Positions 23,680-40,499 of a stretch of DNA of 64,000 nt are shown piece by piece. The stretch comes from Escherichia coli (lineage in GTDB: Bacteria; Pseudomonadota; Gammaproteobacteria; Enterobacterales; Enterobacteriaceae): NCBI RefSeq assembly GCF_044324785.1, contig NZ_CP172127.1. One strand, given 5' to 3'. Position 1 is the first letter of the stretch. Every line of letters starts with the position of its first letter. The position numbers were made by a program, and so were the translations under genes. A model generated the notes under the pieces. It made no database searches and had not been told where the DNA came from. It was given only the letters and a program-made list of their open reading frames with translations.

Positions 23680-24418
23680 ATGGACGACACACAATTGCAG
23701 GCTCTGGCTAACGAACTGGCCAAAAATCTCAAAACCCCTGAAGATCTCAGTCAGTTCGATCGCCTGCTCAAGAAAATAAGTGTTGAGGCAGCTCTCAACG
23801 CTGAACTGACTCACCATCTGGGACATGAAAAAAATCAGACCAAATCGGGAACCAACTTCCGTAATGGCTATTCCACGAAAACCGTCACCACTACCGACGG
23901 GCCGATGGAATTACGTACTCCACCTGATCGTGATGGTTCCTTCGAACCACAACTGGTGAAGAAAAATCAGACCCGCATTACCGGCATGGACAACCAGATC
24001 CTGGCGCTGTATGCCAGAGGGATGACTACCCGCGAAATTACCTCAGCCTTCAAAGAAATGTACGACGCCGATGTCTCGCCCACGCTGATATCCAAAGTGA
24101 CCGATGCGGTTAAAGAACAGGTCTCTGAATGGCAAAACCGACCGTTGGATGCACTGTATCCCATTGTTTATCTTGACTGTATTGTGGTTAAGGTTCGTCA
24201 CAGCGGGAGTGTCATTAACAAAGCGGTGTTCCTCGCGCTGGGCATCAATACCGACGGTCAGAAAGAGCTGCTGGATATGTGGCTGGCCGAAAATGAAGGT
24301 GCAAAGTTCTGGCTGAATGTACTGACGGAACTGAAAAATCGCGGCCTGAACGATATCCTTATCGCCTTCGTGGACGGCCTGAAAGGCTTCCCGGAAGCGA
24401 TTAATGCCGTCTATCCCA
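23680..24418 (+). pseudogene. IS256-family transposase, N-terminal about 246 aa, truncated by IS200 sequence
   Basis: MDDTQLQALANELAKNLKTPEDL...NAELTHHLGHEK...LDCIVVKVR...IAFVDGLKGFPEAINAVYP then loss of homology. Confidence 0.8.
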
Positions 24419-24650
24419 TAAAGCCGGATACGCTCATTTTGGGCGGGATCTCCACAAGCATATGGATATGATCTGCACAGCACTCAGCTTCAAGAATCCG
24501 TACACTTTTCCACTCACACAGCTTTCTCAAAATACTGCCTGTTGCTTTACGCTTCTCTCTGTAGAACACTTTTCTTCGGTATTTTGGCGCAAAAACTATG
24601 TGATATTTACAGTTCCATCGGGTATGCGCTAAGCTCTTTTCGTTCCCCAT
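24418..24650 (-). pseudogene. tnpA: IS200 transposase TnpA, N-terminal part only
   Basis: MGNEKSLAHTRWNCKYHIVFAPKYRRKVFYREKRKATGSILRKLCEWKSVRILEAECCADHIHMLVEIPPKMSVSGFMG; gene cut off at 24418. Confidence 0.75.
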
Positions 24651-24654
24651 TGGG

Positions 24655-24723
24655 ACCCCCTTTTGATTTCTTGTTTGACACTTGCAGTTGCCAGACCGCA
24701 AGGTGTTTTAACAAATCAAAAGG
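24655..24723 (-). promoter_or_regulatory. IS200 5' leader stem-loop immediately upstream of the tnpA start codon
   Basis: 12-bp arms CCCCTTTTGATT (24655..24666) and AATCAAAAGGGG (24712..24723) with 45-nt loop; RBS and ATG lie directly after the stem on the minus strand. Confidence 0.4.
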
Positions 24724-24739
24724 GGTTTTAATAACTGGC

Positions 24740-25787
24740 TCAAAGCTGAAAGCTTTCCGGCCCCCAGCCTAGCTGGGGTTTTTCTGTGCACAAAAATCCG
24801 GAAACGAGTGAGCGTTTCAGGATTCTTAAACAGACCCTGGATCGGTCAACTGCTCCTAAACTGATCGGCATTACACCTGTCGGCTGCCGTTTTTTCAGCT
24901 CCGTGATCCATGGGCCGGGTTCTTTGGTAAGCAATGCTGCCGCCCTTGCCCCATGGATAAATAATGTCCGGTGGTAGGTATCCCCACGTTTGCTTATCCC
25001 CAGCATGCGAACCTTCCCAGCGGACCCCGTCTGCTTCGGCACCAGACAGACATAAGCGTCAAACTCACGTCCGGATTTAAATGCTGAGGCCTCGCCCATG
25101 GTGGCGACCACCGCCGTAGCGATTAACGGCCCCACACCGGGGATTTCCATTAGGCGCTTACAGTTTTCGCTCTGCCGTGCCACGCTGTTAATCTGTTTAT
25201 CAAGGCCATCTATCTGCATGCCCAGCTCACTCAGTCTGTTGTACTGGTATTCAAGCACAGTGATGAGATACGGCGGCAGGTTCGTCTTCATTCGCTCTAG
25301 GGCTGTCGGTAGCTTTCTGTCCATCGCTGTCCAATCTTTGTGGAGGATTTCACCAAACTCGAGGAGCGTGCCAAGGGTATTAATATGCGAGGTTCTGAAC
25401 TTCACCAGTTGTCTGCGCGAACGGTGCAGGACCAGAACTGACTGCTTCTCTTCCGTTTTAACAGCGATATCTTTACTGGGCTGCTGTACCGCCATCCAGA
25501 TAGCACGCGCATCCATCACATCATTTTTGTTGCCCATGACGAATGCTTTAACGAAGCGAGCTTGCAACAGCCGAACTTTGTGTCCCAGTTTTTTCCAGTT
25601 CCCTCGCCCAATGTTGGGAGCCTCCACAAGCCTCCATACCTATCAGACAGGGTTCCCGGTTGCTGAAGAACGTCAGAAAATCCTTGCTACGTAGCTGCTT
25701 GTCCACCACTTCGCCCGTGTACTCATTGATGAAGTGAACCTGAATCAGATACTTTGCGATATCAACGCCAACCGGTGTATATTTCAT
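24740..25787 (-). pseudogene. IS110-family transposase, frameshifted near 25600
   Basis: N-terminus MKYTPVGVDIAKYLIQVHFINEYTGEVVDK...LIGMEACGGSQHWAREL (ORF 25548..25886), continuing in another frame with MEIPGVGPLIATAVVA...MLGISKRGD (ORF 24740..25627). Confidence 0.75.
24761..24783 (+). terminator. Hairpin followed by a T-run (rho-independent terminator-like), at the IS200 left end and the 3' end of the IS110-family gene
   Basis: CCCCCAGC-CTA-GCTGGGG followed by TTTTT on the plus strand. Confidence 0.35.
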
Positions 25788-26028
25788 TTGTGGAGTCGCC
25801 AGTCTGAGGGCGCTTTTGCATCCCGTATTGGGCACTATGATGCCGGAAATCTGAGAGGCTCCACAGCAGACAATTTTACCCTTCATCCATCACAGTGCAC
25901 CTCTCTTAACAGGGCAGGATGTGTTCAGTACATTTCTCCTTTTATGGTTACAGTTTATCCATCATGGCGTAATTGAAGGCTGTCGTGAAGGAGAGGAAGA
26001 GCATCTCATCACTTACAAACAAATACAT

Positions 26029-26047
26029 TAATGATAACCATTTGCAT
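26029..26047 (+). promoter_or_regulatory. Fur-box-like sequence upstream of sitA
   Basis: TAATGATAACCATTTGCAT resembles the Fur consensus GATAATGATAATCATTATC. Confidence 0.3.
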
Positions 26048-26066
26048 TTGTATAGATTATGCTATA

Positions 26067-26088
26067 AAACATAGCCGTTGCTATGTTT
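26067..26088 (+). promoter_or_regulatory. MntR box upstream of sitA
   Basis: Palindrome AAACATAGC-CGTT-GCTATGTTT, essentially the mntH-type MntR operator, about 35 bp before the sitA ATG. Confidence 0.5.
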
Positions 26089-26120
26089 GTTCTAATTTTG
26101 CTCACTATAGGTACTGAATT

Positions 26121-27035
26121 ATGCACTCAATAAAAAAATTAACCATGCTCTTGGGGTTCCTCGCCCTCACCTGCTCGATCGCATTTCAGGCGAGTGCAAC
26201 TGAAAAATTCAAGGTCATTACAACATTTACCATCATCGCAGATATGGCCAAAAACGTGGCTGGAGATGTTGCAGAAGTCTCATCCATAACCAAGCCCGGT
26301 GCGGAAATTCATGAGTATCAGCCTACCCCTGGCGATATTAAACGTGCGCAGGGGGCACAACTGATTCTCGCCAATGGAATGAATCTGGAATTGTGGTTCC
26401 AGCGCTTTTACCAGCATCTCAATGGTGTTCCAGAAGTGATTGTCTCTTCGGGTGTGACGCCAGTAGGGATCACCGAAGGCCCCTACGAGGGAAAACCTAA
26501 CCCTCATGCCTGGATGTCGCCAGATAATGCTTTGATTTACGTCGATAATATTCGTGATGCGTTGATAAAATACGATCCGGCAAATGCAAAAACATACCAA
26601 CGTAATGCCGATACTTATAAAGCCAAGATTACCCAAACCCTTGCCCCCCTGCGTAAGCAGATTGCTGAACTCCCTGAGAATAAAAGATGGATGGTCACCA
26701 GTGAAGGGGCTTTTTCTTATCTCGCACGCGATTTGGGGCTAAAAGAGCTTTATCTGTGGCCGATAAATGCCGATCAACAAGGAACACCCCAGCAGGTACG
26801 TAAAGTGGTTGATATAGTGAAGAAAAATAATATCCCAGCGGTATTTAGTGAGAGTACGGTTTCCGATAAACCAGCGCGTCAGGTTGCGCGTGAAACCGGC
26901 GCACACTACGGCGGTGTGCTCTATGTCGATTCCCTGAGCACAGAAAACGGCCCGGTACCTACGTATATCGACCTTCTGAAGGTTACTACCAGTACGCTGG
27001 TGCAGGGAATTAAAGCCGGGAAAAGGGAGAAGTAA
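26121..27035 (+). CDS. sitA: Mn/Fe ABC transporter periplasmic binding protein SitA
   Basis: 304-aa ORF with signal peptide; ZnuA/TroA-family SBP; first gene of a four-gene SBP-ATPase-permease-permease operon. Confidence 0.9.
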
Positions 27036-27862
27036 TGATGCAATCTGCGGGTATTGTCGTTAATGGCGTTACTGTCACCTGGCGTAACGGGCACACAGCA
27101 CTGCGCGATGCATCCTTCACAGTACCAGGCGGATCTATTGCCGCTCTGGTTGGGGTAAACGGTTCCGGAAAATCGACGTTATTTAAAGCGATTATGGGAT
27201 TCGTGCGTCTGACTACCGGAAAGATATCTGTTCTGGGTATTCCCACGCGGCAGGCTCTGCAGAAAAACCTGATTGCCTACGTCCCGCAGTCAGAAGAAGT
27301 GGACTGGTCCTTTCCTGTACTGGTGGAAGATGTGGTGATGATGGGCCGCTATGGGCATATGGGTATGTTGCGTATAGCCAATAAGAGGGATCGTCAGGTT
27401 GTCACCGATGCGCTGGAACGTGTCGATATGGTAGATTTTCGCCATCGACAAATCGGCGAGCTTTCCGGTGGACAAAAGAAACGCGTCTTTCTGGCGAGAG
27501 CGATTGCACAGCAGGGTGATGTGATCCTGCTGGATGAACCTTTTACCGGCGTTGATGTGAAAACCGAAGCCAAAATCATCAGCCTGTTGAGGGAGTTACG
27601 CGCGGAAGGCAAAACGATGCTTGTCTCAACGCACAATCTCGGATCCGTCACGACATTTTGCGATTATACGGTCATGGTCAAAGGCACCGTCCTGGCAAGC
27701 GGGCCGACAGACACCACTTTTACAGCCGAGAACCTGGAGCTGGCTTTTAGCGGCGTACTACGCCATGTCACACTTAAAGGCTCGGAAGAAAGCATTATTA
27801 CTGACGATGAACGCCCCTTTGTGGCTTATCGACCATCAGCGGTGCAGAGGGAAGAAAGATGA
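27035..27862 (+). CDS. sitB: Mn/Fe ABC transporter ATP-binding protein SitB
   Basis: Walker [10 protein letters not shown], signature LSGGQKKR, Walker B ILLDEP. Confidence 0.9.
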
Positions 27863-28716: not shown

Positions 28717-29591
28717 TGGCATTATTACTGGAGCCACTGCAGTTCACCTTTATGAGTCACGCACTGCTGATTTCACTGGTAGTTTCCATACCCTGTGCGC
28801 TGCTGTCGGTCTTTCTGGTCCTGAAAGGTTGGGCACTGATGGGAGACGCGATGAGTCATGCGGTTTTTCCTGGTATCGTGCTTGCGTGGATACTGGGTTT
28901 TCCTCTGGCGGGAGGAGCATTCGTCGCCGGAGTATTCTGCGCGGTGGCGACGGGATACCTGAAAGACAACAGCCGAATCAAGCAAGATACAGTGATGGGG
29001 ATTGTTTTTTCTGGCATGTTTGCCGCAGGTCTGATCTTGTATATTGCAGTCAAACCCGACGTACATCTTGACCATATTCTTTTCGGCGACATGCTCGGGG
29101 TAACCATCGGCGATATAATCCAGACGGTGATTATTGCCGGGCTGGTTACACTTGTTATTAGCGTAAAATGGCGGGATTTTTTGCTGTTCAGCTTTGATTA
29201 TCAACAGGCGCAGGTAAGCGGTTTGCATACGAGATGGCTGCATTATGGGCTGCTGTGCATGGTCTCTCTGACCATTGTGGCGACGCTGAAAGCGGTAGGT
29301 ATCATTCTCTCCATTTCTCTGCTCATTGCGCCTGGCGCCATTGCGGTACTCCTGACGCAACGCTTTCATATTGCGCTCCTGCTGGCGCTCGGTATATCGG
29401 TAATGGTCTCAATGACTGGTGTATGGCTCTCCTTTTTTATAGACAGCGCACCAGCACCAACGATTGTTATCTTATTCACGGTTGTATTCATCCTGACGTT
29501 TACCGCTTCCAGCATCAATGCTCACGCGAAGGAAAATGTCGATCCACAGGATCTCCCGACTAGTACAACAACCAGAGAGCAACATCTGTAG
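28713..29591 (+). CDS. sitD: Mn/Fe ABC transporter permease SitD
   Basis: 292-aa ABC-3 family permease, paralogous to SitC. Confidence 0.9.
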   Translation: MMALLLEPLQFTFMSHALLISLVVSIPCALLSVFLVLKGWALMGDAMSHAVFPGIVLAWILGFPLAGGAFVAGVFCAVATGYLKDNSRIKQDTVMGIVFSGMFAAGLILYIAVKPDVHLDHILFGDMLGVTIGDIIQTVIIAGLVTLVISVKWRDFLLFSFDYQQAQVSGLHTRWLHYGLLCMVSLTIVATLKAVGIILSISLLIAPGAIAVLLTQRFHIALLLALGISVMVSMTGVWLSFFIDSAPAPTIVILFTVVFILTFTASSINAHAKENVDPQDLPTSTTTREQHL

Positions 29592-29825
29592 GCACATAGC
29601 AGTCATGGAGACAATCTTGTGAAGTCATAGAGTGTCGGGGGAAGGTATTGAAAGTCCCCGACCTCCGAAGAAAATATGGGCGGCATGATCAGGAAAACAC
29701 CGTCAGCTCCTGTATAAAGTTATTTGTTGCCACCGTTGCCCAAATCACTCATATCAACAAACGGAATATTCAGTTTGAATCCACATTCCATTGTGGGCGT
29801 ACGAATAGCATCAAGTTTTGCTGTA

Positions 29826-36558: not shown

Positions 36559-36653
36559 GCTTCATTTCGCGCACAGCCATCCCCCTGAAATCTGGCTGAC
36601 TGTTATTTCGCAACAGTTATTGAGTAAATCTTTAACCTGTTAACAGAGGGTTT

Positions 36654-37178
36654 ATGAAACGTAAACTTATTGCCTTTGTGATTCTGGCTACATCATCCTG
36701 TGGATATGCAGCCACCAAAGATGTAACAATGAATCTTGTTGATAGTGACGGAAAAGAGCGAAATATTGGTAAAATAACCATCCAGAAGACACCCTACGGG
36801 CTGCTGTTCACCCCTGATCTTCACTCCTTACCCGCCGGCATTCATGGTTTTCATGTACATGAAAACGCAAGTTGTGCTCCTGCCCTGAAAGATGGAAAAA
36901 CTGTCGCTGCTTTATCTGCAGGTGGTCACTTTGACCCGGAAAAAACAGGGAAGCATCTCGGTCCATGGTCTCCTGATGGCCACCTGGGTGATCTCCCTGC
37001 GCTTTATGTCACTCATGACGGAAAAGCAACCTACCCGGTGCTTGCGCCAAGACTATCTGAATTAAAGGAGCTCGATGGCCGTTCGCTAATGCTCCACGCA
37101 GGAGGTGATAATCATGATGACCATCCTGAACCTCTAGGTGGCGGTGGTGCAAGAATTGCCTGTGGTATCATCCCATAA
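36654..37178 (+). CDS. sodC: Periplasmic Cu/Zn superoxide dismutase, prophage-type SodC (second copy)
   Basis: Identical 174-aa product to 22235..22759. Confidence 0.9.
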
Positions 37179-37306
37179 TCAATCAGGTAAGGGATATCCT
37201 CCCTTACCCTTAATCTTCCCTGGCTGCATGTGCATATCTTTCAGTTACTGTGAGATACCTGTATTACGGTGTCTTTTTAGCTCACAGAAATATCAGACAG
37301 CCCGTT

Positions 37307-37531
37307 TCAGTGTTTTATTACCTTAATCTTTTTACGGCATTCTTCAGCTCTTGCGCATGCTATTTTTTCACCTGTTTCATAACATTGCTGGCAGCCTAAT
37401 CCAAATTTCATCGCCATATCATAACCTTCCCGAAAACCTCGGAACCACGCGTTACGAAGGTATTCATCATATTCCCCGCAGTCAATAATAACCATTTTAT
37501 TTTCATGGGATTTTCCGGTATTCTCACTCAT
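37307..37531 (-). CDS. Hypothetical small Cys-containing protein (copy of 21882..22106)
   Basis: Same 74-aa product with 2 substitutions (H-to-Q, Y-to-C in the 119-aa track ORF). Confidence 0.35.
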   Translation of the reverse strand: MSENTGKSHENKMVIIDCGEYDEYLRNAWFRGFREGYDMAMKFGLGCQQCYETGEKIACARAEECRKKIKVIKH

Positions 37532-38360
37532 TTTCGATACCTCAATGCTTACAACAGAAAAGTATACTTTTACGAAGTTCGCCTTTGCAGGACTATATAA
37601 AGTTATCACTGGATGCAAGAGCCGGAAATCCTGTATATCAGGATCAACTTTGTAATTCAATAACATATTATCCAGTGAAAAAGTAAGTATATTTAAGCTG
37701 GGGAAGGAGAAGGGGGACTTGATTTGATATTTTCATCAATAATATTATTTTTCCTCCTCCATTATTCATTCAGACCTGGTTCCGGGCGTAATTCCGATTT
37801 CTCTGTTGAAGCGATGCATTTATATTTAAATATTCACCTGTCATTGAATTTTATTTGAAATAGGAGAAAATCTCCTCCTGTACTACAGATAACCCGGAAT
37901 GTTCCTCGAAAGAAAATTCTGGCGCAGAATTCACGCCCGGTTCTGTTCAACATCATGCAGGATAACGATACCGAAACGTTAAACTCTGGCAATTCTCGTG
38001 TTATACACAGGCAGGAGTGATTACTACGGTAAGAATTGCTGAAAAGGGGAGAACACTGAAGGCCTTATTCGCGAAGAATAAAGGAGACATTTCATGTAAA
38101 TTATTATCAGAGATAACCTTCTCCAGGCGCTTTTGTTCGCTTCCTGAATTGCTACCTGATACATATTTACGGGATGCCAGCCTGGTGACTATAACTCCGA
38201 AAAGACCGATTATTGTATTGCGTGCATCCGGCATGTTTACAATGTACGCTGGTATCTAACGGAGTCTGACACAGATGCACGCAGGTGTATATTTTAACGT
38301 AATTATCCGGAAAGAACAGTATATTTTAATGCGGGAGTTGCATGAGCGGTGGATTTGCCC

Positions 38361-39266
38361 CTATATTTCCAGACACCTGTTATCACTTAACCCATTACTG
38401 GCCTGCTGCCGCAGATATTCCCGTGGCGAGCGATAACCCAGTGCACTATGCGGATGCCATTCGTTATAATGCTCGAACGCCTCTGCAAGGTTCTTTGCTG
38501 CCGTTAACCCGTCTGGTTTAGGCATGATACTGATGTAGTCACGCTTTATCGTTTTCACGAAGCTCTCTGCTATGCCGTTACTCTCCGGACTCCGCACCGC
38601 CGTGTTCTTCGGTTCAAGCCCCAACATCCGGGCAAACTGCCGTGTTTCATTAGCCCGGTAGCATGAACCATTATCCGTCAGCCACTCTACTGGAGACGCC
38701 GGAAGCTCGTTGCCGAAGCGGCGTTCCACCGCTCCCAGCATTACGTCCTGTACTGTTTCACTGTCGAAGCCGCCCGTAGTGACTGCCCAGTGCAGTGCCT
38801 CACGGTCACAGCAGTCCAGCGCGAACGTGACTCGCAGTTTTTCTCCGTTATCACAGCGGAACTCGAACCCGTCAGAGCACCATCGTTGATTGCTTTCTTT
38901 CACGGCCACTTTGCCAGTATGTGCCCGTTTCGATGGCGGTACAGCGGTTTTTCGCTCAAGCAACAGCGCATTCTGGCGCATGATCCGGTAAACACGTTTG
39001 GCATTGATCGCAGGCATACCATCAAGTTCGGCCTGTCTGCGAAGCAGCGCCCATACCCGACGATAACCATACGTGGGCAGCTCTCCGATAACATGGTGTA
39101 TACGGAGAAGCACATCCGTATCATCTGAGTGACGGCTGCGGCGACCATCTTTCCAGTCATCGGTTCGTCTGAGAATTACGTGCAACTGCGCACGCGACAC
39201 CCGGAGACAACGGCTGACTAAGCTTACTCCCCATCCCCGGGCAATAAGGGCGCGTGCGCTATCCAC
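38361..39266 (-). CDS. insD: IS2 transposase InsD (orfB)
   Basis: 301-aa [33 protein letters not shown]...[22 protein letters not shown]. Confidence 0.9.
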
Positions 39267-39589
39267 TTTTTTGCACGCCCGTATTCAACGGCTTCTTTAA
39301 GGAGTTCATTTTCCATCGTTTTTTTGCCGAGCAGGCGCTGGAGTTCTTTAATCTGCTTCATGGCAGCAGCAAGTTCAGAGGCAGGAACGACCTGCTCTCC
39401 TGCGGCCACAGCAGTAAGACTTCCCTCCTGGTATTGCTTGCGCCAGAGAAATAACTGGCTGGCTGCCACACCGTGTTGCCGGGCAACAAGGGAGACCGTC
39501 ATTCCCGGTTCAAAACTCTGCTGAACAATAGCGATCTTTTCCTGTGTAGTACGCCGTCTGCGTTTCTCCGGTCCTAAGACATCAATCAT
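39224..39589 (-). CDS. insC: IS2 InsC (orfA)
   Basis: [52 protein letters not shown]...; the track ORF is extended upstream to 39634. Confidence 0.85.
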
Positions 39590-39681
39590 CTGCTCTCCAA
39601 TGACTAGTCTAAAAACTAGTATTAAGACTATCACTTATTTAAGTGATATTGGTTGTCTGGAGATTCAGGGGGCCAGTCTAA

Positions 39682-39948
<267 letters not shown>

Positions 39949-40069
39949 CAACGTATTCATGAGCTGGAAAAGCAGGTTCGTCGCCTGGAGGAACAAAAAA
40001 CGATATTAAAAAGCTACAGTGCTCTTGATATCCTCCCCACTGAACGGTTTACGATAGTTACCAGACTGA

Positions 40070-40499
<430 letters not shown>

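Follow-up and report, generated by a model that had tools for sequence, protein, structure and literature searches.

The DNA immediately upstream of sitA in the 64,000-nucleotide stretch of Escherichia coli chromosomal DNA analysed here (the window) is very probably the regulatory region of the sitABCD manganese/iron importer operon, with predicted operators for two known repressors, Fur and MntR, and with the Fur array trimmed by the end of an insertion sequence (IS) of the IS110 family (Table 1). Both Fur and MntR have been reported to repress sitABCD in Salmonella and in Shigella (reviews PMC3852070 and PMC9315381, which cite Ikeda 2005 and Runyen-Janecky 2006; also PMC8970401), and the operator finding is therefore already known: earlier work has described this dual control of sitABCD by MntR and Fur, and the lineage-specific IS110 junction is the only new detail.

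Table 1. Features in and around the sitA upstream region (window coordinates)
Feature	Position	Strand	Basis or remark
Dead IS110-family element: transposase with a frameshift and no C-terminus, plus a non-coding left end of ~230 bp that finishes in ...CATCTCATCACTTAC	24857-26016	-	
12 bp AAACAAATACAT separating the IS from the sit homology	26017-26028		sequence comparison
Main Fur box (predicted), ATTAATGATAACCATTTGC	26027-26045		Fur matrix; 14/19 to the classical consensus
Second Fur site (predicted), overlapping the first at +6 bp	26033-26051		11.2 bits, Fur matrix
Predicted -35, TTTGCA	26041-26046	+	read from the sequence; 16-bp spacer; inside the Fur sites
Candidate second MntR-like box, degenerate, core ATAGA-TTAT-GCTAT	26048-26069		centre 19 bp upstream of the main box
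Predicted extended -10, TGcTATAAA	26060-26068	+	3' end overlaps the MntR palindrome
Main MntR operator (predicted), AAACATAGC-CGTT-GCTATGTTT	26067-26088		palindrome search, MntR matrix, conservation
sitA, periplasmic Mn/Fe-binding protein, 304 aa	26121-27035	+	ORF list; RefSeq name SitA on the 100%-identical locus
sitB, 275 aa	27035-27862	+	intact ORF; RefSeq annotation of the identical locus
sitC, 285 aa	27859-28716	+	intact ORF; RefSeq annotation of the identical locus
sitD, 292 aa	28713-29591	+	intact ORF; RefSeq annotation of the identical locus

The sitABCD locus and its carriers

A first-pass annotation of the window, made from the letters alone, had placed two metalloregulator motifs in front of sitA of a Sit-type transporter, and the operon downstream agrees with that placement: four co-oriented, intact genes encode the binding protein, the ATPase and the two permeases of the sitABCD Mn/Fe ABC importer. 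SitB scores 586.6 bits against NF011630 (the NCBIfam equivalog for the manganese/iron ABC ATPase; cutoff 393), SitA, SitC and SitD match related Mn/Zn ABC models at scores under those models' cutoffs, and their 100%-identical counterparts are called SitA-D in RefSeq. There, the identical locus is annotated as an IS110-family transposase ("frameshifted; incomplete") with sitA, sitB, sitC and sitD after it.

Positions 24500-27100 are 100% identical to strain XDL and 14 others among the genomes listed, and 99.9-100% identical over the 25 genomes listed. Of 5,426 complete E. coli genomes, 53 carry the entire arrangement, IS110 remnant plus sit allele, and many of these carriers are poultry and human isolates. 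Strain PK8275 (and thus at least one strain) carries a window-type chromosomal sit locus together with a native-type second sit copy on a 180-kb plasmid, and up to four sit-promoter copies per genome were seen.

Downstream, homology to other sit loci, including those on plasmids, stops near 29596. The sitD gene encodes 292 aa here compared to 285 aa elsewhere, with a 7-bp indel near the end that alters the last codons. A 25-nt motif right after the sitD stop (29591-29615) is seen again in strain F11, ~285 bp ahead of the palindrome, but it was rejected as a general cassette boundary because it is missing from the other eight sit loci searched. On a larger scale, long inverted repeats (20301-22823 and 36590-40447, 99.2-99.6% identical, the second copy broken by ~1.3 kb) flank the IS-rich sit island, so that the sit region lies between inverted duplications; each repeat includes sodC (superoxide dismutase), at 22235-22759 on the minus strand and in a mirror copy.

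A perfect MntR-type palindrome precedes sitA

The palindrome had initially been described as near-perfect; it is fully perfect, as its 9-nt arms (26067-26075 and 26080-26088) are 100% complementary around a 4-nt spacer, and 32 nt separate it from the ATG of sitA downstream. It is the sole match in the window even when up to three mismatches are allowed, with 0.02 matches expected by chance. The box in the K-12 mntH promoter, AAACATAGC-AAAG-GCTATGTTT, has the same arms, and those of K-12 mntS and mntP are looser versions. Weight-matrix scans for MntR and Fur, named in the first-pass annotation as a check on its motif calls, put each motif at the top of the 64-kb window, at 25.9 and 16.2 bits, respectively. 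For MntR, with a matrix built from four K-12 boxes, the next best score in the 64 kb was 11.7 bits, and when mntH was left out of the matrix the palindrome still reached 22.3 bits compared to shuffled-window maxima with a mean of 13.4 and a highest value of 18.6. Across seven E. coli sit alleles, 20 of the 22 palindrome columns are invariant and two vary.

We then consider the distribution of the exact arms, scanned in one genome per species, from which 80 loci were fetched and scored. Thirty-six lie 12-61 nt upstream of mntH (32 loci) or sitA (4 loci), and all of these are enteric, coming from 35 named Enterobacteriaceae genera plus Dryocola. The remaining 44 loci belong to other phyla or classes, and no manganese gene was found near them. 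Among the exact-arm matches are palindromes with the spacer CGTA/TACG on six contigs (L062-L067) of one metagenome bin of an uncultured bacterium, P11BWT0bin.6; no manganese gene was found near the palindrome on any of the six, and they seem to form a dispersed repeat family with no relation to MntR. By its arm sequence, 4-bp spacing and promoter position, the window palindrome is thus classed as a predicted enterobacterial MntR operator of the mntH/sitA type.

Read as RNA, the palindrome has a folding energy of -9.4 kcal/mol (z = -4.9), a U-rich run, GUUCUAAUUUU, comes after it, and a terminator scan flags it, as would suit a hairpin in the sitA leader acting as an attenuator or terminator rather than a DNA operator. 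We regard such a role as highly improbable: any perfect palindrome folds in this way, the stem contains only three G-C pairs, the loop varies freely across loci (CGTT, AGTT, AAAG, TACG, TGCG, TACA), and mntH, with its box 13 nt from the ATG, has the very same arm sequence and not just the same pairing. Moreover, the full hairpin would not be transcribed, because the predicted transcription start lies within the left arm.

A second, degenerate MntR-like box is tentatively placed just upstream of the DNA operator. It scores 9.8 bits with the MntR matrix lacking mntH, under the shuffled-window maxima, and the equivalent position in pMRY15 has a perfect core, ATAGC-TTCT-GCTAT. The sitA promoters of Enterobacter, Cedecea and Dryocola have a second perfect-core box, TATAGCAATTGCTATA, located after the palindrome at 19 bp centre to centre; the degenerate box of the window has the same 19-bp spacing but sits on the upstream side of the main palindrome.

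Two predicted, phased Fur sites lie upstream of the palindrome

The Fur-box-like motif originally noted at 26029-26047 (TAATGATAACCATTTGCAT) is real, although its best register, ATTAATGATAACCATTTGC, starts two bases further left and ranks first of 63,982 window positions under the Fur matrix, with 0.15 such sites expected per shuffled window. A search of the window for the classical consensus GATAATGATAATCATTATC at up to three mismatches returned no match, because the best register agrees with it at only 14 of 19 positions. To build the matrix, the top site was taken from each of ten K-12 promoter regions under Fur control (fepA-fes, fepD-entS, fepB-entC, fhuA, cirA, exbB, fur, fhuF, ryhB and tonB). 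None of them is related to sit or mntH, so the matrix is independent of the tested locus, yet it is partly circular in that the training sites were seeded with the consensus. Scored by leave-one-out, these training sites span 8.4-21.1 bits with a median of 14.2, below the value at 26027-26045, which by weight matrix is therefore a predicted Fur box within the range of the training sites. The second predicted site overlaps it at a 6-bp offset, the pattern of real Fur clusters, and falls under the definition of a Fur-box cluster (overlap at 6 or 3 bp; PMC2189734); in the other sit alleles the same phased second site scores 13.8-18.5 bits.

Since 14/19 to the Fur consensus is attained at four further places in the window, one or both motifs might be chance matches in AT-rich intergenic DNA. 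Against this, each motif ranks first under its own matrix, at the low expectations per window given above, and both are conserved at the same position across alleles and genera. The matrix scans and the conservation together therefore exclude a chance origin of either motif, the probability left to it being negligible.

An imperfect inverted repeat, ACAAATACA / TGCATTTGT (8/9; 26019-26027 and 26043-26051), brackets the Fur core, and its left arm falls within the 12 bp between the IS end and the sit homology. It may be due to chance, or may hint that these 12 bp are native to the window allele.

The Fur array differs from that of other sit alleles

We compared the window with six other E. coli sit alleles, four of them chromosomal (C9, next to uspF; F11 and A3, in the ycgX region; SCPM-O-B-8794) and two from plasmids (pAPEC-O2-ColV and pMRY15-131_1). 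Both motifs stand at the same positions in all six, in the same order of elements: the Fur core TAATGATAA, the invariant TGCTATAAAACATAG, the palindrome and sitA. The Fur core itself is invariant across sit alleles, but the Fur region as a whole is more variable than the palindrome, with 10 of 26 columns varying among the seven alleles.

At the main Fur site the window allele is the weakest of the seven, with 16.2 bits versus 18.5-23.8 bits. The deficit relative to F11 and C9 amounts to 7.6 bits, of which 4.0 bits stem from two junction bases, 1.5 bits from T>C at 26038 and 2.1 bits from T>G at 26044. A third phased Fur site, 6 bp upstream of the main one, scores 2.5 bits in the window compared to 4.0-13 bits in native alleles. 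By these scores, the Fur array of the window is cut from three phased sites to two, with weaker bases. The MntR box and the predicted core promoter are untouched. The notion that the operators were retained thus applies fully to the MntR box but only in part to the Fur array, which lost its third site and has the weakest main site. The same figures, 14/19 to the consensus and 7.6 bits under the best sit alleles, also weigh against reading the region as a site of working dual repression.

These losses raise the question of whether both operators are present with Fur control materially weakened, such that manganese, acting through MntR, would be the main signal for the operon, which would be partly de-repressed in plentiful iron. 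The comparison among alleles speaks for such weakening, as the junction and the two point changes account for the deficit of the main site and the third site is low. Yet 16.2 bits is above the training median, close to the 18.6 bits of the K-12 mntH site (regarded as Fur-repressed) and higher than the sitA Fur boxes of Enterobacter, Cedecea and Dryocola (13.8-15.1 bits), and the G at 26044 is common to the sitA promoters of these three genera. We therefore judge a materially weakened Fur control unlikely. Because the site exceeds both the training median and the sitA sites of the other genera, Fur control at the window allele is probably retained; it is possibly attenuated.

A truncated IS110-family element abuts the Fur box

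The first-pass annotation had the IS110-family element ending about 40-250 bp upstream and allowed that the native promoter context may be altered. The element is indeed upstream, but it lies nearer than proposed: its end at 26016 leaves 10-12 bp to the Fur box, 50 bp to the palindrome and 104 bp to the start codon of sitA. The change of context is also stronger than claimed, since native DNA is replaced up to the Fur box and the array is trimmed. This end was placed at 26016 because the matches of the 24 related IS copies listed stop exactly there and five IS copies in different contexts diverge from each other right after ...CACTTAC (CATCTCATCACTTAC).

The element belongs to the IS110 family by its transposase, but it is a remnant, frameshifted and missing the C-terminus and the right end. 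The transposase consists of two overlapping frames on the minus strand (24740-25627 and 25548-25886), which score 206.9 and 48.1 bits against NF033542 (cutoff 140), and its reading frame ends at 25886 (25787 in RefSeq, at the identical locus).

Between the IS end and the sit homology, the 12 bp at 26017-26028 could be assigned neither to the IS nor to native sit upstream sequence, with which they gave no convincing alignment. For about 2,600 further E. coli sit loci, the alignment with the window begins only at 26028/26029, and the native sit loci examined, along with most of the 2,618 native-probe records, have a further 45-150 bp of upstream sequence in common. This native sequence was searched for through the whole window and not found. 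Among the 5,426 complete E. coli genomes none has the window sit allele without the IS, and three metagenome contigs with this allele all have the identical IS junction.

In relatives of the IS110 family, the non-coding left end is expected to encode the guide ("bridge") RNA, and the ~230-bp left end of the remnant (25788-26016, minus strand) occupies this place. It looks mosaic: 25788-25950 is like L007, a relative from E. coli, apart from a diverged stretch at 25867-25880, and 25939-26016 resembles a different group (L008-L012). Over 24400-26400, Rfam returned only one chance-level match and the IS200-derived STnc490, with none in the sitA leader or the IS110 left end. The STnc490 match (24660-24781, minus strand; 129 bits, cutoff 56), an Hfq-binding RNA from the IS200 5' end, lies inside an IS200/IS605 fragment adjoining the truncated IS110.

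The IS110 left end also contains a sigma-70-like site facing sitA (25906-25934, plus strand; TTAACA-17-TACATT, 9/12), from which transcription could read through into sitA and partly bypass metal control. We deem this very unlikely: two such sites occur in the region versus 1.0 ± 1.0 by chance, transcripts starting there would still cross both operators, and known IS110-family promoters face the transposase, that is, the opposite strand here.

A predicted promoter shared by both operators

Given the sequence itself and a -10 block (TGCTATAAAACATAG) that is the same in all seven sit alleles, we infer that TTTGCA-16-TGcTATAAA is the best candidate for the sitA promoter. Its -35 can alternatively be read as TTGCAT at 26042-26047, and the other sit alleles have TTTTCA with a 17-bp spacer. 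A generic promoter scan of the region did not call this promoter, because the -10 hexamer ends in A. An alternative, ATGATA-16-TAGATT (26031-26058), suggested by analogy with mntH, was judged less likely because its -10 hexamer varies among alleles.

The predicted Fur box overlaps the predicted, unmapped -35. Fur loaded with iron (or manganese) would occupy the two overlapping boxes at 26027-26051 and cover the -35, and MntR loaded with manganese would occupy the palindrome, and with it the 3' end of the predicted -10 and the probable start of transcription. With the Fur sites over the -35 and the palindrome over the -10 end and start, either repressor alone would be expected to exclude RNA polymerase, such that sitABCD would be expressed when both metals are scarce. 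The literature describes such repression, by Mn-MntR and by Fe-Fur, for mntH as well as for the sitABCD operons of Salmonella and Shigella (PMC3852070, PMC9315381, PMC8970401). The sequence comparisons establish the two motifs with their scores and conservation, the intactness of sitABCD and the place of the IS junction; for the window allele, the promoter elements, the repressor binding and the metal response are all features that we infer.

Discussion

The closest known systems are the sitABCD operons of Shigella flexneri and of pathogenic E. coli (on ColV plasmids and UPEC/APEC islands), for which repression by both Fur and MntR is reported (Runyen-Janecky 2006; Sabri 2006; both via PMC3852070). 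They are the same operon, with 93-97% DNA identity from 26029 on, an identical MntR palindrome, the same Fur core TAATGATAA and the invariant TGCTATAAA. The window differs from them in that an IS110 remnant stands in place of 45-150 bp of native sequence, in three bases of the Fur 19-mer and in a spacer that is 1 bp shorter, the last being common to the C9 allele. The SPI-1 sitABCD operon of Salmonella Typhimurium (Ikeda et al. 2005), compared here by literature statements only, is likewise reported to be repressed by MntR and Fur (PMC9315381, PMC8970401); a review also mentions an OxyR element in the Salmonella sitABCD promoter, and the corresponding upstream DNA in the window is IS-derived.

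Beyond sit in these organisms, the K-12 mntH promoter has MntR and Fur operators (Patzer and Hantke 2001, via PMC3852070) with the same palindrome arms and with the Fur box upstream of the MntR box as in the window, at a start offset of -34 compared to -40. It differs in driving an NRAMP symporter gene, in its spacer (AAAG versus CGTT), in the distance of the box from the ATG (13 versus 32 nt) and in its Fur score (18.6 versus 16.2 bits). In the sitA promoters of Enterobacter, Cedecea and Dryocola, a Fur box is followed by the same palindrome as in the window, and in Enterobacter sp. R1 (L030 6408-6450), Cedecea (L032) and Dryocola (L052) the two directly abut. The Yersinia yfeABCD operon encodes a homologous Mn/Fe ABC importer under metal-responsive repression, but only Fur controls it, as MntR is missing from Yersinia (PMC3852070).

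Reading motifs in the bare sequence thus picked up a genuine textbook region of dual-metal control, which by itself is no new biology. What is particular to this allele is that in a minority E. coli lineage the native sit upstream DNA has been swapped for an IS at the edge of the Fur site, a matter of modest practical interest. From sequence comparison, it is conceivable, though we think it rather improbable, that the IS110 junction and the two point changes loosen the iron control of sitABCD in this fixed haplotype, leaving manganese control intact. If true, an insertion sequence would have naturally rewired a metal importer that is linked to virulence, and an altered iron responsiveness would change how the carriers express this transporter, whose link to virulence concerns birds and humans.
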